Translations under genes and position numbers: made by a program
Part shown: positions 3,867-28,978 of the stretch, in pieces
How the letters are laid out: each line of letters starts with the position of its first letter
Numbering within the stretch: the stretch's first letter is position 1
Notes under the pieces: generated by a model
What the model was told of the DNA's origin: nothing
What the model saw: only the letters and a program-made list of their open reading frames with translations
Database searches by the model: none
Sequence record: OZ035822.1
Strand: one strand, 5' to 3'
Length of the DNA: 44,789 nucleotides
Source: Vectrevirus PDP21P6

Positions 3867-4016
3867 ATGAAAAAGCTGTTTAAGTCTAAGAAGGTTGTAG
3901 GTGCATTAGTTGCATTGGCAATTGCTCTTGTTTCTGTAGGTCTTGGCGTAGACCTAGGTGAAGGTACGGAAGGTTCCGTCACTGACGTGGTATGCCAAGT
4001 AATCACCTGTGAATAA
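3867..4016 (+). CDS. small membrane protein (lysis-associated candidate)
   Basis: GGGAGG RBS then ATG 3867; 49 aa with one hydrophobic segment VVGALVALAIALVSVGL. Confidence 0.35.
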   Translation: MKKLFKSKKVVGALVALAIALVSVGLGVDLGEGTEGSVTDVVCQVITCE

Positions 4017-4230
4017 GGTACTTGAGGTGGTGGCAGGTCTTATTGGCCTGCTGCTTGCCGCTAAGAAAAAGAAGGAAGAGAAGGAGGCACAAAGTGAGGC
4101 GAATCATGCTAGCGACAATCCTGCTGATTGGTTCGCTGATCACTTCAGGGTGTCAGACGGCGTTACCAGAGAATCCAAAGGTAAAGCCCCTGAAGCCGAC
4201 GCTGACGGCAGTTTACGAGGTGGACGATAA
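4009..4230 (+). CDS. putative i-spanin (Rz-like)
   Basis: 73 aa, GTG start, N-terminal TM segment then charged region; overlaps a downstream out-of-frame lipoprotein ORF; short for an i-spanin. Confidence 0.4.
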   Translation: MNKVLEVVAGLIGLLLAAKKKKEEKEAQSEANHASDNPADWFADHFRVSDGVTRESKGKAPEADADGSLRGGR

Positions 4231-4303
4231 GGTCTGCTTCAGTAAGCCTGACGCTACACAATTAGGTCTGTACATTCTCTCGCTAGAACGCGGGTATAAT
4301 TAA
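4106..4303 (+). CDS. putative o-spanin (Rz1-like lipoprotein)
   Basis: ATG 4106 after AGGAGG; MLATILLIGSLITSGC signal with lipobox-like TSGC then proline-rich short mature region; overlapped architecture with 4009-4230. Confidence 0.5.
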   Translation: MLATILLIGSLITSGCQTALPENPKVKPLKPTLTAVYEVDDKVCFSKPDATQLGLYILSLERGYN

Positions 4304-4332
4304 TACATAGTTTTATGTATCAGTGTCTTACG

Positions 4333-4355
4333 ATTTACTGGACACTATAGAAGAG
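4333..4355 (+). promoter_or_regulatory. phage RNAP promoter
   Basis: ATTTACTGGACACTATAGAAGAG, +1 G at 4350, upstream of tailspike 1. Confidence 0.7.
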
Positions 4356-4434
4356 ATAAGATAGTGCCGTTCTTTTGAGCGGCCTATTACTAGCCAATCT
4401 TCATGGTGAGGGTTGGGAAGTAATAGGAGATAAA

Positions 4435-6342
4435 ATGGCTAAATTAACCAAACCTAATACTGAAGGAATCTTGCATAAGGAAGACTCTTTGTATGAGTAC
4501 CTTGATGCGAGAGAGAGTATAGTTTTAACATCAAAGCCGTTTGGTGCAGTAGGTGATGCTACTACTGATGATACGGAGGTTATAGCTGCTTCACTAAACT
4601 CTCAAAAAGCTGTCACAGTCTCAGACGGTGTATTCTCTAGCTCTGGTATTAATAGTAATTACTGTAACTTAGACGGTAGAGGTAGCGGGGTGCTAAGTCA
4701 CCGTTCCAGTACAGGTAACTACTTAGTATTTAACAATCTACGTGCAGGTCGCTTAAGTAATATTACGGTAGAGAGTAATAAGGCGACTGATGATACTCAG
4801 GGGCAGCAGGTATCTCTTGCTGGTGGCAGTGATGTTACTGTAAGTGACGTTAACTTCTCAAACGTTAAAGGTACTGGTTTCAGTTTAATAGCATACCCTA
4901 ATGGTGCGCAACCTAATGGGCTTATGATTAAAGGCATTCGAGGTAGCTACTCTGGCTATGCTACTAATAAGGCTGCTGGATGCGTACTTGCTGACTCCTC
5001 AGTTAACTCTCTCATAGATAACGTCATTGCTAAGAGCTATCCTCAGTTCGGAGCTGTAGAGCTGAAAGGTACAGCCAGTTATAACATAGTAAGTAATGTT
5101 ATAGGGGCAGATTGCCAGCATGTAACTTACAACGGCACTGAAGGGCCAATAGCTCCTTCTAATAACCTTATCAAGGGGGTGATGGCTAATAACCCTAAGT
5201 ATGCAGCGGTTGTTGCAGGAAAAGGAAGTACGAACTTAATCTCAGACGTGCTCGTAGATTACTCAACTTCTGATGCTAGGCAGGCTCATGGTGTTACCGT
5301 AGAAGGATCTGATAACGTCATAAATAATGTGCTTATGTCAGGATGTGATGGTACTAACTCTTTAGGACAAGGGCAGACTGCTACAATTGCACGCTTTATA
5401 GGTACAGCTAATAACAACTATGCGTCTGTATTTCCTAGCTACAGTGCTACAGGTGTTATTACCTTCGAACCCGGCTCTACCCGTAACTTCGTAGAGGTAA
5501 AGCACCCTGGCAGGAGAAACGACCTTCTCAGTTCTGCTAGTACTATTGACGGTGCAGCTACTATTGACGGCACTAGTAATAGTAACGTAGTGCACGCACC
5601 TGCATTAGGACAGTACATAGGTAGTATGTCAGGTAGGTTCGAATGGCGGATTAAGTCCATGTCACTCCCTTCAGGCGTTCTTACTTCTGCTGATAAGTAC
5701 AGAATGCTTGGAGATGGTGCTGTGTCATTAGCTGTAGGTGGGGGCACTTCTTCTCAAGTTCGCCTATTTACTTCTGATGGTACTTCTCGGACAGTGTCCC
5801 TCACCAACGGTAACGTGCGTCTTTCTACCAGTAGCACAGGCTTTTTGCAGTTAGGCGCTGATGCAATGACCCCAGACAGTACTGGTACATACGCATTAGG
5901 TTCCGCCAGCCGAGCATGGTCTGGCGGTTTTACTCAAGCAGCATTCACTGTTACCTCAGATGCTCGGTGTAAAACAGAACCTCTTACTATCTCAGATGCC
6001 TTACTGGATGCTTGGTCTGAAGTTGACTTTGTGCAGTTTCAGTATTTGGATCGTGTTGAGGAGAAGGGTGCAGACTCAGCTAGATGGCACTTCGGTATCA
6101 TCGCTCAGCGAGCTAAGGAGGCTTTCGAACGTCACGGTATAGATGCACATCGCTATGGCTTCTTGTGCTTCGACAGTTGGGATGATGTATACGAGGAAGA
6201 TGCCGATGGCTCTCGTAAACTGATTACACCAGCAGGTTCCCGCTACGGTATTCGTTACGAGGAAGTGCTGATATTAGAGGCTGCGTTGATGCGGAGGACT
6301 ATTAAGCGTATGCAGGAAGCACTAGCTTCCCTGCCTAAGTAA
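4435..6342 (+). CDS. tailspike 1 (beta-helix depolymerase-like) with C-terminal intramolecular chaperone domain
   Basis: ATG 4435 with AGGAGA RBS; N-terminal GAVGDATTDDT pectate-lyase-like signature; C-terminal SDARCK...HFGIIAQRAKEAF segment resembles peptidase S74 autocleaving chaperone. Confidence 0.8.
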   Translation: MAKLTKPNTEGILHKEDSLYEYLDARESIVLTSKPFGAVGDATTDDTEVIAASLNSQKAVTVSDGVFSSSGINSNYCNLDGRGSGVLSHRSSTGNYLVFNNLRAGRLSNITVESNKATDDTQGQQVSLAGGSDVTVSDVNFSNVKGTGFSLIAYPNGAQPNGLMIKGIRGSYSGYATNKAAGCVLADSSVNSLIDNVIAKSYPQFGAVELKGTASYNIVSNVIGADCQHVTYNGTEGPIAPSNNLIKGVMANNPKYAAVVAGKGSTNLISDVLVDYSTSDARQAHGVTVEGSDNVINNVLMSGCDGTNSLGQGQTATIARFIGTANNNYASVFPSYSATGVITFEPGSTRNFVEVKHPGRRNDLLSSASTIDGAATIDGTSNSNVVHAPALGQYIGSMSGRFEWRIKSMSLPSGVLTSADKYRMLGDGAVSLAVGGGTSSQVRLFTSDGTSRTVSLTNGNVRLSTSSTGFLQLGADAMTPDSTGTYALGSASRAWSGGFTQAAFTVTSDARCKTEPLTISDALLDAWSEVDFVQFQYLDRVEEKGADSARWHFGIIAQRAKEAFERHGIDAHRYGFLCFDSWDDVYEEDADGSRKLITPAGSRYGIRYEEVLILEAALMRRTIKRMQEALASLPK

Positions 6343-17419: not shown

Positions 17420-17447
17420 AAGTACATTAAATAACTGGAGATTGATT

Positions 17448-18170
17448 ATGTATAAATTAGCATTGAATGTAGGTGATTATGTTCGTAACATCAATGAAGC
17501 CTCACGTCGTTATCGTTGCCGTGGTGTAGTGGATCATGTAAGTGAGAACATGTACCATGTAGAATATGATGATGGTATTAAGGCTTCTTATCACAAGAAA
17601 ACCGCACATAAATATCTTGAAAAGATTGTAGAGGTAAACAATCAATGTAAGTGCATACATGATGAGGTTTGCGATAAGTGTGCACGTCAGGTAGTTAAAG
17701 CCTTTACCTTTGCTCAACGTTATGGTTCTATGTATGGTGCTGGTCACAAGACCATTGCAGAAGCAGCTTGGAAGACATTGCAGTTTGAGCGTTCAAATGG
17801 ACGACGCACCACACTTAAGAAAGAGCGCCGCAATGTAATCACTGGTAAGACTCAAAGTGAGATGGTTAAGTTATGTGGTACTGCATTAGGCGTGTCACAG
17901 TTTAATACCCGTGCTCTAGGTAAATCTACAGGTCAAGCTATGGTGAAGATTGGCGAAGCTATGATGCACCCGAATGTACCTGTGCGAATCGTGGATGTTG
18001 ACCATGCAATCACAGAGCATGGTACACCACGCCGTGTAGCTAACAATCATTTTGCCGACACTATAGAAGACATTATCCGTAAGCAAGAGTTGAAAGGTCT
18101 TCACATCTTGAATGGTGAAGAATTATTGTACCTCCCTATCGTTACTGAAGAAACCTACGTGAATATCTAA
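17448..18170 (+). CDS. hypothetical protein
   Basis: ATG 17448 with GGAG RBS; 240 aa; Cys cluster CKCIHDEVCDKC. Confidence 0.55.
   Translation: MYKLALNVGDYVRNINEASRRYRCRGVVDHVSENMYHVEYDDGIKASYHKKTAHKYLEKIVEVNNQCKCIHDEVCDKCARQVVKAFTFAQRYGSMYGAGHKTIAEAAWKTLQFERSNGRRTTLKKERRNVITGKTQSEMVKLCGTALGVSQFNTRALGKSTGQAMVKIGEAMMHPNVPVRIVDVDHAITEHGTPRRVANNHFADTIEDIIRKQELKGLHILNGEELLYLPIVTEETYVNI
18059..18081 (+). promoter_or_regulatory. possible weak phage RNAP promoter inside coding sequence
   Basis: ATTTTGCCGACACTATAGAAGAC keeps the ACACTATAGAAG core but has 3 mismatches in the -9 to -13 region. Confidence 0.3.
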
Positions 18171-18774: not shown

Positions 18775-21271
18775 TTGGAAGAAGGAAGCAGAAGGGCGCA
18801 TCCTAGTGATGGACGCCGAAGCTAAAGGTTTGCTTGATGCTATCCGCTATGGCCATCGTGAAGATGTACACATCATTTGCTGCATGGATTTGCTTACTAC
18901 AGAGGAGTTCTTATTCTTTGACCCATATGAGATGCGTGACCCTGAAGCAAGAGAACACCTGAAGGAATGGGAAGGACATCAAGATGGAACCTTGGTTGAC
19001 GGTGTTAACTTCCTGAAGCATTGTGAAGCTATTGTGTCACAGAACTTCCTAGGGTATGACGGCCTTCTCTTTGAGAAAGCATTCCCTGATATTTGGAAAG
19101 GCTTTAACTATACCGAGAAGCGCGGCAAGGGCAGACTCCGTGCTGACCTGTGTCCTATCCGTGTTGTCGACACACTGGTAATGAGTCGCCTGTTAAACCC
19201 CGACAGACGTCTTCCTCCGCAAGCTTATGCCAAGGGCATGGGTAACGTTGCCCCTCACTCAATTGAGGCGCACGGCATTCGTATAGGCCGCTATAAGCCG
19301 GAGAACGAAGACTGGTCTAAACTAACCGACCACATGGTTCATCGTGTACGTGAGGACGTGGCAATCGGGCGTGACCTGTTCCTCTGGCTATACAACGGAG
19401 AATGGACGGAGCACAAACGCCGTGGCGTGAACAAACGCACTGGCCTAGGGATTGAGACAGCCTTCCACATGGAGTCCATTGTGGCGCTGGAGATGAGCCG
19501 TCAGGCAGAGCGTGGATTCCGTCTGGATATAGACAAGGCGTTAGCGCGATGCAAAGAACTGGACGCTAAGATTGATGAGACAGTCGCAGCGTTCCGCCCT
19601 CACATGCCTATGCGTATCAAGTCTAAACCTTTTAAACCGGAAGAAAAGAATGAAGTATGCCAACGCGCAAATGAGTATGGAGCTAGCAACAATATACCTA
19701 CTGTCCTTGACCCCTCTCTCTTTCTTCACACAGAGAGACGAGGAGATCGCAAGACAATATGGAGTGTCACTACTAAGTCTGGTGATTGGTCAGCTAGTGT
19801 CAAGAAAGACTTTCCTCACCTTAGAGGAAACCGTAATGACACGCCAAGCATCAAGTGGATTGGCGCTTACTCGCCTGTTACTTTCGAAGAGATTCCCTTG
19901 GGTAACAGGGATACAGTTAAGCAAGTGCTCTATGATTATGGATGGAAAGGTGTTGAATTTAACGATACCGAGCAAGCGCATCTGGATGAGCACGGAGTAT
20001 TACCCAAACCTTGGAGTGGAAAGATAAATGAGAAGTCCCTTACTTTATGGCAGGAAAGAGCCGCACGTGAAGGTAAAACAGTCCCTGATTGGTGCTTGGG
20101 TATCGCTGAATGGTACATTCTCGTTAGCCGTCGCGGACAGATACTCAACCGTGGTGACGTTGAAGCCTTCGATCAAAAAGGGGCGTGGCCCTCGCAGGCT
20201 GGTGTACGAAAGTGTCGTGGCCTTGTACCTGTAGCATTTAACAAGGAGCTAGGAATCAATGCGCAGCAATACTACGAAAGGTATGGATGTTGGCCTACGT
20301 CTGACAAAGATGATGGAGAGTGGCGTGTGCCAGGCAATGCTGTTACTATTGGTACTAATACGTTTCGTATGCGTCATCGTAACATTGTTAATATTCCTTC
20401 CCGTGGGTTGTATCCTCTACGTGATTTATTCATAGCTAGCAAAGGTAAAATGATACTCGGATGTGATGGCGCGGGTCTTGAGCTTCGCATCTTAGCCCAT
20501 TTCATGGGTGATCCTGAGTATATTGATATTGTCTTGAATGGCGATATTCACTCACACAACCAAGCGAAGGCTGGATTGCCCTTACGTGACACTGCGAAAA
20601 CATTTATCTACGCTTTTCTCTACGGGTCTGGCATACCAAACCTTGCCGCTGTATGTGGCATGACTGAAGCACAGATGAAAGAGTGTGTCGCTCGCTTTGA
20701 AGTAGAGCTACCTCACTTAGCTAAGCTTAAGGAGGGAGTGGAATCTGCTGCTTCACAATTTGGGTACATGCACGCTGTAGATGGGCGCTGGGGTCGTGTA
20801 CGTGTTAGTAATGGTGAGATTAAGATTCACACCTGTCTTAATGTACTCCTCCAGATGACCGGTTCTCTCACTATGAAGTACTCAAAAGTGAAAGCACTAG
20901 CTACCATGCGTAAAGAGGGCGTGGCTCTTGATGCTAATGGTAATCCTGCTATGCTTGTCGACTATCACGATGAGTGGCAGATGGAGGTGCCTGAAGACGA
21001 AGTGTTAGAAATTCGCTACTCTATTCCTTCCTCTGAATGGAAAGAAGAAGAGAAAAGGCAGTATCGTGATAGCGAAGGACGCATGTGGTCTGCTCCTAAG
21101 GTGGTTGAAGGTAATCCAAAAGAAGATGAAGAGGTCACTGTACGTCGTCGTTATCATCGTGCTGGTGAAATCCTAGCTGAGTCTATTACTTGGGCAGGTG
21201 AATATCTTAAGCTTCGTATCCGTATGGATGGCGAATATATGCTTGGATATTCATGGGCTGAGACACACTGA
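18761..21271 (+). CDS. DNA polymerase (family A, T7 gp5-like)
   Basis: ATG 18761 with GAGG RBS; motifs DGAGLELRILAHFM, RDTAKTFIYAFLYGSG, YHDEWQMEV. Confidence 0.95.
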   Translation: MKTIDWKKEAEGRILVMDAEAKGLLDAIRYGHREDVHIICCMDLLTTEEFLFFDPYEMRDPEAREHLKEWEGHQDGTLVDGVNFLKHCEAIVSQNFLGYDGLLFEKAFPDIWKGFNYTEKRGKGRLRADLCPIRVVDTLVMSRLLNPDRRLPPQAYAKGMGNVAPHSIEAHGIRIGRYKPENEDWSKLTDHMVHRVREDVAIGRDLFLWLYNGEWTEHKRRGVNKRTGLGIETAFHMESIVALEMSRQAERGFRLDIDKALARCKELDAKIDETVAAFRPHMPMRIKSKPFKPEEKNEVCQRANEYGASNNIPTVLDPSLFLHTERRGDRKTIWSVTTKSGDWSASVKKDFPHLRGNRNDTPSIKWIGAYSPVTFEEIPLGNRDTVKQVLYDYGWKGVEFNDTEQAHLDEHGVLPKPWSGKINEKSLTLWQERAAREGKTVPDWCLGIAEWYILVSRRGQILNRGDVEAFDQKGAWPSQAGVRKCRGLVPVAFNKELGINAQQYYERYGCWPTSDKDDGEWRVPGNAVTIGTNTFRMRHRNIVNIPSRGLYPLRDLFIASKGKMILGCDGAGLELRILAHFMGDPEYIDIVLNGDIHSHNQAKAGLPLRDTAKTFIYAFLYGSGIPNLAAVCGMTEAQMKECVARFEVELPHLAKLKEGVESAASQFGYMHAVDGRWGRVRVSNGEIKIHTCLNVLLQMTGSLTMKYSKVKALATMRKEGVALDANGNPAMLVDYHDEWQMEVPEDEVLEIRYSIPSSEWKEEEKRQYRDSEGRMWSAPKVVEGNPKEDEEVTVRRRYHRAGEILAESITWAGEYLKLRIRMDGEYMLGYSWAETH

Positions 21272-21281
21272 GTTATACTCA

Positions 21282-21305
21282 AGGTCACTTACGAGTGGCC
21301 TTTAT
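21282..21305 (+). terminator. terminator-like hairpin after DNAP
   Basis: AGGTCACT-tacg-AGTGGCCT (one G-U pair) followed by TTTAT. Confidence 0.4.
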
Positions 21306-21329
21306 GGATAACTTAACTAAGGAAATATT

Positions 21330-21590
21330 ATGATTAAATACACTGCTTATCAGTTAACTAAAGATCGTAAGATAGGTGTTGAGGTTAAAGCTTGGAATGA
21401 AGGACACATCACTGTAGTCATAGAGTGTCGCCAAGATAATGGTATGATATTAAGAAGCTACCGTTGCTTCACCAAATTACGCTGCAAAGATTTAACTGAA
21501 GAATTATTCTTACGTTGTATTGTTGAATCTATTAAGCTTATTAGACCTTACGCTAAGAAAGTTGTAGGCAATGTCACAGTAGTACATTGA
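21330..21590 (+). CDS. hypothetical protein
   Basis: 86-aa ORF. Confidence 0.5.
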   Translation: MIKYTAYQLTKDRKIGVEVKAWNEGHITVVIECRQDNGMILRSYRCFTKLRCKDLTEELFLRCIVESIKLIRPYAKKVVGNVTVVH

Positions 21591-23504: not shown

Positions 23505-23527
23505 ATTTACTGGACACTATAGAAGAG
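23505..23527 (+). promoter_or_regulatory. phage RNAP promoter
   Basis: ATTTACTGGACACTATAGAAGAG, +1 G at 23522. Confidence 0.7.
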
Positions 23528-24357: not shown

Positions 24358-25295
24358 TAGACGCTGATATGTTACCTTACATCGTCGGGTATACAATCAG
24401 TGACATGACTTATGTACGAGCTACAACTCGTGTTAAGTCAGGACAAGTCCCATCAATCAAAGATACCCCTGAGTGTAAGCAAGCGTGTGACCGTGTGAAC
24501 TCCTTGCTTAACTCTTGGGTGTATGCAGCAGAGTGTGATGCTGCTAAGTTATTCATGACGAAGTCAGAAGCTAACTTCCGTGTCCGCCTAGCATTCACCA
24601 AACCTTATAAAGGTCAACGTAAGACCGAGAAGCCTCCATTCTTCTATGAAATGCGAGAGCATCTCTTAGAGGTTCACGGTGCAATCTTGGCAGATGGTGA
24701 GGAAGCTGATGACCTCATGAGTATTGCACAATGGGACAGCCATCGCCGCTTCCAGCAAGATACAGGTAACGAGTTCCCTATCGGTAGTCCAGAGCATAGA
24801 GCATTCTCTGACACTTGCATCGTTTCCTTGGATAAGGATTTGATGATTGTTCCCGGTTGGCATCTACAGCCGGGAGGTGAGAAGAAATGGGTAGAGCCTA
24901 TGGGTTGGCTTGAGCTACGCCGCAAGGCTAATGGTCAAGTGAAAGACCTTAAAGGCGCTGGCCTCATGTTCCATTATGCACAGATGATTATCGGTGATGA
25001 TATTGATAATTACGCTGGCATACCCGGACGTGGTGCTAAATACGCCTATGATCTTCTCAAAGATTGTAAGACAGAGAAAGAGTTGTACATGGCAGTGCTT
25101 GGTGCATACAAGGCTAAGTTCGGACATGGACAAGTTAAGATTAAGAATTACCGAGGTGGTTATCGTATCGGCAAGGCTTTTGACCTGATGCTTGAATGTG
25201 GTCGCCTAGCACACATGGCAAGATTCAAGGGTGATATATGGCGAGCCGATAAGAACCCAATCTTGTGGGGAGATGAAGGATGGCTACAAAGCTAA
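24270..25295 (+). CDS. 5'-3' exonuclease (T7 gp6-like)
   Basis: ATG 24270 with AAGGAG RBS; acidic metal-binding motifs ALIDADMLPYIVGY and ILADGEEADDLMSIA. Confidence 0.85.
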   Translation: MRPNFDFGATVSEDNNLILWPTEGNRIALIDADMLPYIVGYTISDMTYVRATTRVKSGQVPSIKDTPECKQACDRVNSLLNSWVYAAECDAAKLFMTKSEANFRVRLAFTKPYKGQRKTEKPPFFYEMREHLLEVHGAILADGEEADDLMSIAQWDSHRRFQQDTGNEFPIGSPEHRAFSDTCIVSLDKDLMIVPGWHLQPGGEKKWVEPMGWLELRRKANGQVKDLKGAGLMFHYAQMIIGDDIDNYAGIPGRGAKYAYDLLKDCKTEKELYMAVLGAYKAKFGHGQVKIKNYRGGYRIGKAFDLMLECGRLAHMARFKGDIWRADKNPILWGDEGWLQS

Positions 25296-25684
25296 AATCT
25301 TCTGAAGTTGCTGCCTATAAGAAAGAATTGCTAGAGAAGCAGGGTTGGAAGTGCCCTATTTGTGGAGCACCGCTTAAGGCAGTAGCTGAGATTAACCGAG
25401 TGTTAGACCATTGTCATCGCAGAGGTTATTGCAGGGCAGTACTCTGTCGTGGATGCAATGGTGGTATCGGGAAGATAGAAAACTTAGTAAAGACTTATTG
25501 TAAGGCTGGAGATAATGAGTACTTCATTATCAAGACACTGCGGAATATCGCAGATTATCTAGACTTACATAGTAAGCCTCAGACTGATAAGATTTATCAC
25601 AAACATCAAACGGAGGCAGAGAAGCGCGAGGCTAAGAACCGTAAGGCACGCCTTGCTTATGCAAGAAAGAAAACAGGAGGTTAA
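25280..25684 (+). CDS. endonuclease VII-like Holliday junction resolvase
   Basis: CPICG...LDHCH...CRGCNG Cys/His arrangement as in the T4 endonuclease VII family; 134 aa. Confidence 0.55.
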   Translation: MATKLKSSEVAAYKKELLEKQGWKCPICGAPLKAVAEINRVLDHCHRRGYCRAVLCRGCNGGIGKIENLVKTYCKAGDNEYFIIKTLRNIADYLDLHSKPQTDKIYHKHQTEAEKREAKNRKARLAYARKKTGG

Positions 25685-25685
25685 C

Positions 25686-26126
25686 GTGGCTTGCATAGAT
25701 CACGGACATTATAAATGTCTGAATAAACTAGGATATTACCGCTCATGGCACAAGCCTAGTAAGAAGTTACAACTGCTTCATAGAGTGGTCTATGCTGAGC
25801 ATCATGGGTTATCTCTTGAAGCAATAGAAGGTCTAGTGGTCAGACATACTTGTGACAATGCAAGATGTATTAATCCACAGCATCTTATAATTGGTACGCA
25901 GCAGGATAACATACAGGATATGGTAAAAAGAAACCGTCATGCACGTATGATAGGAGATACTAATCCTAGGGCTGTACTTACGTGGGATGTAGTGCGAGAT
26001 ATTCGTGCCAATTATATTAAGGGTGCAAAATCTGGCCCATATTCACGTACAGTCTTGGCAGAGAAGTATGGTGTCTCTGCTGCCACTATTAGTGATATTA
26101 TAGCTGGAAGGAGTTGGAAAGAATAA
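25686..26126 (+). CDS. HNH homing endonuclease (second copy, different subfamily)
   Basis: GTG 25686 with AGGAGG RBS; motif HRVVYAEHHG...VRHTCDNARCINPQHLIIGTQQDN plus C-terminal HTH-like segment. Confidence 0.75.
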   Translation: MACIDHGHYKCLNKLGYYRSWHKPSKKLQLLHRVVYAEHHGLSLEAIEGLVVRHTCDNARCINPQHLIIGTQQDNIQDMVKRNRHARMIGDTNPRAVLTWDVVRDIRANYIKGAKSGPYSRTVLAEKYGVSAATISDIIAGRSWKE

Positions 26127-27133
26127 TGGGTAAGATTCGAAACTTGTTTACTAATAAGGAGGTAGAAGAAGCAGTTGAAAGTGCAAAGCGGGACAACGGC
26201 ACTATCAACTATCGCCTAATGGCGTCTATTCTCTCAGATAACACGCATGGAACTACAGTTACAAGACAACTTGCAAAGTATTGGGCCAAACAGTTTGAAA
26301 AGCGGAAGAAGAATGGCGAGGCTTATGAAACCTTGGCTATTGCGAACCGCGCTATCAAAGAAGAACGTAAGCTCAGGACTCCTGACCGCTACGAGGATTT
26401 GGCTATTGTACCATTGCCTGACTCGCCTCATCGAAGTGTACTGGTAATACCTGACACCCATGCACCTTATGAGCATCCAGATACATTAGAGTTTCTGGCA
26501 GCGGTGGCAGCACGTTACCGTCCAGACACTGTAGTTCATCTTGGTGATGAGGCGGACAAGCACGCACTTTCATTCCATACGTCAGATCCTAATCTGGATT
26601 CTGCTGGTATGGAGTTAGAGAAGGCTCGTATCTTCATGCGTAAATTACATAAGATGTTCCCTGTAATGCGCATCTGCCACTCTAATCATGGCTCCTTACA
26701 TTTCCGTAAGGCCAGTGCTCATGGCATCCCTGTGCAATACTTGCGCACCTACCGTGAAGTCTTCTTCCCGCAGGGAGGTGGCGACCAGTGGGACTGGCAG
26801 CATACGCATGTCCTTGAGTTACCTAATGGAGAACAGGTGGCATTCAAGCATCAACCTGCTGGTTCTGTCCTAGCAGATGCAGCACACGAGCGTATGAACC
26901 TTGTGTGTGGTCATTTGCATGGTAAGATGTCTGTTGAGTATGCACGTAATACACATGAACAGTATTGGGCTGTGCAAGGTGGCTGTCTGATTGATGAGTC
27001 ATCTCGTGCATTTGCCTATGGTCGTGAGTCTAAATACAAGCCAGCATTAGGTTGTGTGGTCATTCTGGAAGGTGTGCCTCATATTGTCCCGATGCAAACC
27101 AATAGCAACAATCGCTGGATTGGTAAGATTTAG
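26126..27133 (+). CDS. calcineurin-like metallophosphoesterase
   Basis: motifs VIPDTHAPY, GDEADKH, SNHG, GHLHG; ATG overlaps upstream stop. Confidence 0.75.
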   Translation: MGKIRNLFTNKEVEEAVESAKRDNGTINYRLMASILSDNTHGTTVTRQLAKYWAKQFEKRKKNGEAYETLAIANRAIKEERKLRTPDRYEDLAIVPLPDSPHRSVLVIPDTHAPYEHPDTLEFLAAVAARYRPDTVVHLGDEADKHALSFHTSDPNLDSAGMELEKARIFMRKLHKMFPVMRICHSNHGSLHFRKASAHGIPVQYLRTYREVFFPQGGGDQWDWQHTHVLELPNGEQVAFKHQPAGSVLADAAHERMNLVCGHLHGKMSVEYARNTHEQYWAVQGGCLIDESSRAFAYGRESKYKPALGCVVILEGVPHIVPMQTNSNNRWIGKI

Positions 27134-27847: not shown

Positions 27848-28791
27848 ACATCTTCCAATTTCTAGGTCTTCCAGAAGAACACCGCAATCACCCGTTCATG
27901 CTGGTGAAACATCGCGGTGAAGTTCCTGAGAAGAAATTAACCTTTCCATGTTATGCACAGGTGAAACGAGATGGAATATTCAGTGCTGTTGTGGTGCGTA
28001 ATGATGGTGTTGTTGCCATCTTTGGTCGTACTGGTAAGAAGCTCGCAAATGTTGAAGCCTTGGAAAAGACATTTAGTGTATTTCCTGTCGGGTTGTATCT
28101 TGGTGAGTTGCAATCTATGGCTGTTGATGTTTATCTTGAAGCTCTGTCAGGAGTGGTAAACCCTAATCGTACAGAGCCACTTGACTTCATAGGCCAGCAG
28201 ATTAAAGACAACCTGTATATCGACTTCTTCGATATGTTAACTATTAAGGCATTCCATGATGGATTCACTGATGTTTCTTATCTCAAACGTTACGATGCTT
28301 TACATCGTCGCATCGGCGCTCATCTTAGCGGGTACAACGCTATCCTTCCTATTACTCCTTGCCATAATGAGCGAGAAGTTGAAGCGTTTGCGCAAGAGCA
28401 GATAGACGCAGGCCGAGAGGGTGCTGTATTCAAACTGGACTGCGATTATGAAGCAGGCCACAAAGGTTATCGTCAGACTAAAGAAGTCCGTAAGGTAACT
28501 TATGACCTTACTTGTATTGGCTTTGAAGAAGGTAAAGGTAAGTACAAAGGTAAGGTAGCTAACCTCATTTTCAAATGGAAAGGAGGCAAGACAATCAAAG
28601 CTATGTTAGGTAAAGGGTGGACTCATGCAGATGCAGAACAGATGTTCCACGACATTAAACATGGTGGACGATTGAATGTCATTGGTAAAATCTTTGAAGT
28701 CAAAGGTCTTCAGGATTCAAGCAAGGGCAACATTCGTCTGCCCAAAGCGGGAGAATTAAGACATGACAAAGATGAACCAGATTTCTTTTGA
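27844..28791 (+). CDS. ATP-dependent DNA ligase
   Basis: adenylation motif I KRDG in CYAQVKRDGIFSAVV; 315 aa. Confidence 0.85.
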   Translation: MNIFQFLGLPEEHRNHPFMLVKHRGEVPEKKLTFPCYAQVKRDGIFSAVVVRNDGVVAIFGRTGKKLANVEALEKTFSVFPVGLYLGELQSMAVDVYLEALSGVVNPNRTEPLDFIGQQIKDNLYIDFFDMLTIKAFHDGFTDVSYLKRYDALHRRIGAHLSGYNAILPITPCHNEREVEAFAQEQIDAGREGAVFKLDCDYEAGHKGYRQTKEVRKVTYDLTCIGFEEGKGKYKGKVANLIFKWKGGKTIKAMLGKGWTHADAEQMFHDIKHGGRLNVIGKIFEVKGLQDSSKGNIRLPKAGELRHDKDEPDFF

Positions 28792-28978
28792 TAGCATGAA
28801 GGCAACTCGTGCAGTTGAGGTAGCAGAAGCTATCTTTGAAACTTTATCCTGTGGCATGGAAGTGCCATATACTTTACTTGCTGATGCAGAAGAACTTGGT
28901 CTTTCTGTAGAAGCTATCCAAGAGAAGGTTGACGAATTATATGGTACAGACGAAGAAGAAACCGACGATTTCATTTGA
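28763..28978 (+). CDS. hypothetical acidic protein
   Basis: 71-aa acidic ORF with GGGAG RBS; overlaps ligase 3' end. Confidence 0.35.
   Translation: MTKMNQISFDSMKATRAVEVAEAIFETLSCGMEVPYTLLADAEELGLSVEAIQEKVDELYGTDEEETDDFI

Follow-up and report, generated by a model that had tools for sequence, protein, structure and literature searches.

An HNH gene between the endonuclease VII and phosphoesterase genes of Vectrevirus PDP21P6 is probably a free-standing homing endonuclease gene

What kind of gene lies between the endonuclease VII and phosphoesterase genes of Vectrevirus PDP21P6, and how did it come to be there? The window, by which we mean the whole 44,789-nt stretch of sequence record OZ035822.1, is a Vectrevirus genome (K1E-like; Autographiviridae, Molineuxvirinae), and the closest record is Vectrevirus PDP21P3, with 96% identity across the first 24 kb of the window. 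An earlier note, made from the sequence alone, placed at this junction a 146-aa HNH protein, the second in the window, and took its gene for a compact insertion. Sequence comparisons and a predicted structure indicate that the gene is probably an active free-standing homing endonuclease gene of the HNH_3 (His-Me finger) type, spreading by cleavage and gene conversion.

The individual features that the note had described are all present where it had placed them (Table 1). In particular, the ORF encodes an HNH signature (HTCDNARCINPQH, residues 54–66 in a motif scan), is preceded by an AGGAGG element, and lies between the neighbours that the note had named, which Pfam and PHROGs identify as Endonuclease_7 and a metallophosphoesterase. 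The GTG start codon (25686–25688) is located one base past the TAA of endonuclease VII (25682–25684), and the last A of the HNH stop codon (TAA, 26124–26126) doubles as the A of the phosphoesterase ATG (26126–26128), giving the overlap TAATG. The ORF list offers an alternative for this frame, an upstream TTG at 25653 yielding 157 aa; since all homologues of the HNH protein open with M-x-C-I-D-H, and since gene callers likewise chose the 146-aa product on four other contigs, we accept GTG 25686 as the start. The GC content of the ORF (0.40–0.42) is slightly under that of its neighbours (0.44–0.50), a difference so small that base composition is uninformative on origin.

Table 1. Features of the HNH locus and extent of the shared cassette, in window coordinates
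Feature	Position	Strand	Details
Endonuclease VII gene, K1E-type allele	25280..25684	+	Upstream neighbour of HNH; Pfam, PHROGs
Conserved island, endonuclease VII 3′ end	25580..25672	+	Nucleotide identity
AGGAGG ribosome-binding site	25675..25680	+	5-nt spacer to HNH GTG
HNH_3 homing-endonuclease ORF (probable)	25686..26126	+	146 aa, GTG start, TAA stop; Pfam, PHROG, AF2, dN/dS
Domains of the HNH ORF			Nuclease, residues ~1–85; predicted HTH DNA-binding, residues ~95–146
GGAAGGAG, candidate replacement ribosome-binding site	26107..26114	+	Inside HNH 3′ end, ahead of phosphoesterase ATG 26126
Metallophosphoesterase gene	26126..27133	+	Downstream neighbour of HNH; Pfam, PHROGs
Divergent phosphoesterase 5′ allele (N-terminal ~76 aa)	26126..26352	+	Alignments
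Minimal shared block	25649..26217	+	Last 12 endonuclease VII codons, HNH ORF, first 92 nt of phosphoesterase
Match to ENA contig L009	25640–26321		One mismatch (25733); contig ends at 26321
Match to Logan contig L010	25649–26518		No mismatches (one more up to 26727)
Match to Logan contig L011	25649–26217		No mismatches

The endonuclease VII, HNH, and phosphoesterase genes form a run downstream of an exonuclease gene. SP6/K1E-type promoter-like sites (at most three mismatches to ATTTAGGTGACACTATAG; chance expectation 0.04) are located at 23505 and 27128, and none is located between them, so that the HNH gene is probably co-transcribed with its neighbours. The GTG start and the lack of a promoter of its own say nothing about the level at which the gene is expressed. 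The window as a whole contains ten such sites, all on the + strand (4333, 10756, 14800, 17319, 18049, 21590, 23505, 27128, 32266, and 41070).

Family searches assign the N-terminal part of the product to the HNH nucleases, as the Pfam check proposed in the note was to establish, and, tentatively, the C-terminal part to HTH proteins. Specifically, Pfam HNH_3 (PF13392) matches residues 30–75 well above its cut-off (5.1e-9; 36.1 bits, cut-off 24.8), Pfam zf-His_Me_endon (PF05551), which models the I-PpoI-type zinc loop, matches at 27.6 bits (cut-off 27), and PHROG HNH families match at 1.9e-28 and 3.3e-27. Toward the C-terminus, a PHROG "HTH DNA binding protein" family covers residues 72–141, and Pfam HTH_3 matches under its threshold. 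All 28 of 28 homologues are annotated with PF13392 and/or PF05551. NCBIfam holds no model matching either HNH protein of the window, and a sequence search of solved structures with the HNH protein returned nothing at E ≤ 1. Comparison with a 95%-identical allele (P0001) gave 21 synonymous and 9 non-synonymous differences and a dN/dS of 0.10, and comparison of the vB_EcoP_C and G9 HNH genes gave 0.075. These values indicate that the protein is under purifying selection, and, together with the Pfam and PHROG matches, they show that the ORF is not a chance ORF.

An alignment of the window HNH protein with 27 database homologues (41–95% identity) reveals that residues C3, Y17, H32, V51, R53, H54, T55, C56, D57, C61, N63, P64, H66, L67, G70, N75, and D78 are invariant in all 28 sequences. 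Such a set would be expected of a nuclease with a general-base His, an Asn as metal ligand, and a structural zinc site, each individual role being putative. An AF2 model built on the homologue alignment (mean pLDDT 86) contains strands at residues 51–54 and 67–70 followed by a helix at residues 72–81 (pLDDT 87–94), and three C-terminal helices at residues 100–109, 121–128, and 132–140. The predicted structure thus has the layout of a His-Me finger (beta-beta-alpha-metal), with H54, N63, H66, and N75 invariant; in addition, C3, C56, C61, H66, and H32, the candidate residues of a PF05551-type zinc loop, are invariant, and four of them would bind the zinc. In fold searches with the model, I-HmuI was the best match, and I-PpoI was also matched. 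The product is therefore best described, from the model, as a predicted HNH (His-Me finger) nuclease whose C-terminal domain probably binds DNA through an HTH, in agreement with the C-terminal HTH-like segment noted earlier. The predicted layout, a nuclease domain followed by an HTH, is that of a monomeric site-specific HNH enzyme.

The gene is present at this junction in few of the related genomes. As the synteny check suggested in the note indicates, K1E, ACG-C91, and Mt1B1_P10 have endonuclease VII joined directly to phosphoesterase (the ACG-C91 record equates the two genes with SP6 gp22 and gp23), and PDP21P3 has no HNH gene at the endonuclease VII/phosphoesterase junction. An HNH gene at the junction is found in 11 phage records (vB_EcoP_B, C, D, R, and K, which make eight with RefSeq duplicates; vB_Ec-G9; and Klebsiella phages K44PH129C1 and Koku), as against 103 records that match the surrounding 3.5-kb region. 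The HNH genes of these 11 records have at most 72% amino-acid and ~73% nucleotide identity to the window gene, with flanks at 91–100%. Four other public contigs encode exactly the same 146-aa protein, and one more encodes the P0001 variant; on all of them the HNH gene lies between Endonuclease_7 and phosphoesterase. Presence and absence are thus sporadic, at one fixed site, among close genomes, which is the distribution of a homing gene. More widely, a tblastn search with the HNH protein matches 1311 phage records, and farther relatives (40–60% identity) adjoin DNA polymerase or exonuclease genes in Autographiviridae of Klebsiella and Acinetobacter.

Other HNH_3 genes are located nearby in some of these genomes. 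One lies between exonuclease and endonuclease VII in PDP21P3 (L006, ~3978–4570) and in contig L012 (3168–3605), the latter having HNH genes on both sides of endonuclease VII, and contig L008 has an HNH_3 gene upstream of exonuclease (2112–2582). The neighbourhood thus looks like a hot spot for genes of this kind, which fits the life cycle of homing genes.

The description as a compact insertion holds in relation to the SP6/K1E-type gene order, but the change is wider than the 441-nt ORF. Homology to HNH-less genomes ends at 25687 and returns at 26353; the difference is a 665-nt segment (25688–26352) in place of 226 nt. The replaced part includes the first ~226 nt of the phosphoesterase gene, a stretch that has ~50% nucleotide identity to HNH-less genomes and 95% identity to the HNH-bearing vB_EcoP_C and G9; about half of the N-terminal 76 residues of the phosphoesterase differ from the HNH-less form, and the remainder is nearly identical. 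The AGGAGG element that the note had read as the HNH ribosome-binding site likewise stands with a refinement: the same element, at the end of endonuclease VII, precedes the TTG start of phosphoesterase in HNH-less genomes. From its position, the HNH element appears to have taken over one ribosome-binding site and to supply a putative replacement within its own 3′ end.

On the left, the segment is bordered by a conserved island in which mean pairwise nucleotide identity is 0.82–0.90, as against 0.52–0.76 elsewhere in endonuclease VII. The left recombination boundaries of the cassette lie without exception in the final ~95 nt of endonuclease VII, which makes the island the likely left homology arm. 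Constraint on the protein, repeated gene conversion, or a nuclease recognition site within it may account for its conservation. Because the islands on both flanks are kept in HNH-bearing and HNH-less genomes alike, conservation alone cannot place the HNH target.

Comparison of endonuclease VII alleles reveals the cassette in different backgrounds. Endonuclease VII occurs as three allele types, with 62–72% amino-acid identity between types and a nearly invariant 3′ end of ~95 nt: type A in the window, K1E, ACG-C91, and Mt1B1_P10; type B in vB_EcoP_C, G9, L008, L009, and L010; and type C in PDP21P3, L011, and L012. Contigs L009, L010, and L011 all encode the identical HNH protein and share with the window the tracts listed in Table 1; because the left flanks of the window, of L009 and L010, and of L011 differ, the same cassette adjoins all three endonuclease VII types. 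On the right, the association is complete. In particular, a search with the 5′ patch of the window's phosphoesterase gene gave 94–95% identity in nine records and 77% in two, and these are exactly the 11 HNH-bearing records. An identical element in divergent backgrounds, fully linked to one 5′ allele of its neighbour, is what would be expected of homing genes, and it suggests, from sequence comparison, that the HNH gene recently moved between phage genomes along with a piece of the neighbouring gene. The linkage may simply reflect too little homology for crossovers within the 50%-identical patch.

The window's endonuclease VII had appeared unlike that of all relatives in a three-way MAFFT alignment, an artefact of an insertion in PDP21P3; by pairwise BLAST it is a K1E-type allele (92–94% nucleotide and 99% amino-acid identity).

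Further switches between backgrounds are present to the right of the HNH gene. Phosphoesterase positions 26363–26762 have 98–100% identity to vB_EcoP_C and 78–96% to PDP21P3, and from 27163 the window again has 100% identity with PDP21P3; in L011, the change from window-like to vB_EcoP_C-like sequence occurs inside the patch, at ~26218. A second mosaic tract is located at the 3′ end of the DNA ligase gene (28463–28834), with 96–100% identity to vB_EcoP_C and 55–87% to PDP21P3.

The HNH gene of vB_EcoP_C (YP_009789052.1/AQN31679.1; equivalents in vB_EcoP_D, R, K, and vB_Ec-G9) has the same locus, the same family, a similar length, and a downstream phosphoesterase 5′ allele 95% identical to that of the window. 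It differs in starting with ATG rather than GTG, in being linked to endonuclease VII of another type, and in sequence, having 71–72% amino-acid and ~73% nucleotide identity to the window gene between flanks at 91–100%. The difference is unevenly distributed: identity is 82% in the nuclease domain (residues 1–85) and 56% in the DNA-binding domain (residues 86–146), with a 3-aa indel. Conversely, in a third lineage (P0003), located at the same junction in another contig by gene order, the nuclease domain has 58% identity to that of the window HNH protein, and the DNA-binding domain 74%. By these identities the window protein looks chimeric, its nuclease domain nearer the vB_EcoP_C type and its DNA-binding domain nearer the third lineage. 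Moreover, synonymous sites are saturated between the nuclease domains of the window and vB_EcoP_C, whereas the adjoining phosphoesterase patch is 95% identical, which implies that the HNH gene and its right flank have different histories.

A gene that is missing from about 90% of related genomes, the closest included, is not what would be expected of a useful core function, and identical copies of this gene lie in divergent backgrounds. Both observations argue against a domesticated accessory nuclease, one that would serve the phage and not its own propagation, by aiding exonuclease and endonuclease VII in host DNA breakdown or in the processing of replication or recombination intermediates, or by attacking competing phages or host elements; the alternative has in its favour that the gene lies within a DNA-metabolism operon (downstream of exonuclease, between a junction-resolving nuclease and a phosphoesterase), is tightly coupled in translation to both neighbours, and is under purifying selection. 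The two-domain layout, with an HTH that would read sequence, fits the site-specific homing enzymes instead, and we regard an accessory role as unlikely.

The mosaic pattern by itself could arise by ordinary homologous recombination of co-infecting phages, without nuclease activity, and mosaicism is general in the neighbourhood, where further indels and swapped alleles occur. Homing endonuclease genes, moreover, often decay once fixed. A possible instance is the vB_EcoP_B gene (L013, 1733–2161), which differs from the vB_EcoP_C gene only by the deletion of 2 nt from a TATATA run, a change that shifts the frame and removes the C-terminal HTH; either this copy is decaying or the deletion is a sequencing error. 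A decaying copy would also fit the life cycle of a homing gene. A decaying or silent passenger, or a mere DNA-binding protein, carried by ordinary recombination at a hot spot, would accommodate these observations; in the window, however, all invariant family residues are intact, the dN/dS of 0.10 (21 synonymous and 9 non-synonymous differences) points to constraint, and the full-length ORF is retained in four of four extra contigs, so that we give an inert remnant little credence. Some phage HNH proteins stimulate terminase cleavage (HK97 gp74-type systems), and the window's other HNH gene does sit between the terminase subunit genes, but a packaging-associated helper of terminase, as in HK97-like phages, is scarcely credible for an ORF ~25 kb from the terminase genes (30–2659) in window coordinates, at a junction where most Vectrevirus genomes have no HNH gene and yet package normally. 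The three alternatives are less likely than homing, given that the gene is sporadically distributed, that its catalytic residues are intact and its dN/dS is low, and given where it is located.

That other HNH_3 gene (331–774, +; 147 aa; Pfam 2.6e-11) accounts for the word "second" in the note, which was right. It encodes a protein of the Cys-less "NHKDGDKHNNDVSNLEW" type and lies between the small terminase gene (30–329) and the large terminase ORF (722–2659), overlapping the mechanical start of the latter. No pairwise similarity was detected between the two HNH proteins of the window. The 331–774 gene is found in 17 phage records at 90–100% identity (at least 99% in 14), as against ~170 records that match its surroundings, and from this distribution it is likely another sporadic homing endonuclease gene.

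Three other segments of the window lack an assigned function or differ in presence among relatives. An 86-aa ORF with four Cys (21330–21590, +) has no Pfam or PHROG match, and the region around it (21200–21567) does not align with PDP21P3 or vB_EcoP_C; the segment 22068–22367, which contains an ORF assigned to phrog_8057 (unknown function), is shared by the window and vB_EcoP_C and absent from PDP21P3; and a 242-aa His- and Cys-rich protein encoded between the primase-helicase and DNA polymerase genes (17442–18170, +) has no Pfam match, and the families that it does match are all of unknown function (phrog_6703, 7e-118).

For the homing endonuclease reading, the following model accommodates the observations. 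The HNH gene would be transcribed together with exonuclease, endonuclease VII, and phosphoesterase from the promoter-like site at 23505, and translated from its GTG by use of the ribosome-binding site that formerly served phosphoesterase. The product would act as a monomer, with the C-terminal HTH anchoring it at a specific sequence and the N-terminal beta-beta-alpha-metal domain nicking or cutting nearby. Specifically, H54 would likely be the general base, N75 (possibly with D57) would likely be a metal ligand, and C3, C56, and C61 with either H66 or H32 would probably hold a structural zinc. In a co-infection, the HNH-less allele of a related phage would be cut at the junction, close to it, or within the first ~230 nt of phosphoesterase, and the HNH gene would be copied in by repair from the HNH-bearing genome, with the left crossover in the conserved final ~95 nt of endonuclease VII and the right crossover somewhere in the phosphoesterase gene. 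The carrier genome is proposed to escape cutting because the insertion splits the junction and because its phosphoesterase 5′ allele is only ~50% identical. Cleavage activity, its form as a nick or a double-strand break, the position of the target, and carrier immunity are elements of this model that we infer.

Known systems offer partial parallels. I-HmuI of Bacillus phage SPO1 (PDB 1U3E), the best fold match, has 19–22% identity to the window HNH protein, which is no match at the level of sequence, and differs in being intron-encoded and in having no Cys-rich zinc loop, whereas the window protein is free-standing and matches PF05551. I-PpoI (His-Cys box) resembles the window protein in the nuclease core only, being a eukaryotic, intron-encoded dimer without a C-terminal HTH. 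In phage T4, MobE is a free-standing HNH nuclease whose homing is accompanied by co-conversion of flanks (PMC2790892), and MobE and the Seg proteins are encoded, like the window HNH protein, by intergenic free-standing genes between conserved genes, which spread with co-conversion of flanking markers and are sporadic among related phages (PMC2790892, PMC2988022). The T4 proteins belong to another phage family and to other sequence subfamilies, and for the window protein homing is a prediction from sequence. Exchange bounded by homing endonuclease genes, together with domain shuffling, has been described in ICP1 and other phages by Barth, Dunham and Seed (PMC10055350), where such genes border tracts of high identity, occur in groups at adjacent sites, and exchange DNA-binding domains, a pattern similar to that of the window. 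The genes in that study are of the T5orf172 and AP2-associated HNH types, in contrast to the HTH-bearing HNH_3 gene in Autographiviridae considered here, and the tracts differ in length (an island of >10 kb there, ~0.6–1.1 kb in the window). Extra HNH genes in a Vectrevirus have also been noted in a recent preprint (10.64898/2026.09.20.752992).

Several Vectrevirus records in GenBank already have an HNH gene annotated at this junction. In Autographiviridae, sporadic genes for HNH homing endonucleases are commonplace, and the window gene taken alone matters little; only its apparent domain chimerism and the clean movement of its cassette are mildly unusual. Of modest value are the identical 0.6–1.1-kb cassette in three flanking backgrounds, the full linkage between a nuclease gene and the divergent 5′ allele of the gene next to it, and the apparent swap of a DNA-binding domain between nuclease lineages inserted at one and the same site. 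A broader reading, which we offer tentatively and hold to be possible rather than probable, is that homing endonucleases turn over at the junction in Vectrevirus and related Klebsiella phages, with at least three HNH_3 lineages replacing each other there via the same homology arms; that the window enzyme is a natural chimera of a vB_EcoP_C-like nuclease and a DNA-binding domain of another lineage, possibly with altered target specificity; and that the N-terminal ~76-aa module of phosphoesterase is a co-travelling immunity allele. If true, these phages would provide a natural series for mapping change of specificity in HNH_3/HTH enzymes. For comparisons of therapeutic K1/K5 coliphages, the drops in identity at 25.6–26.8 kb would reflect the traffic of selfish elements, and not functional divergence of the phages.
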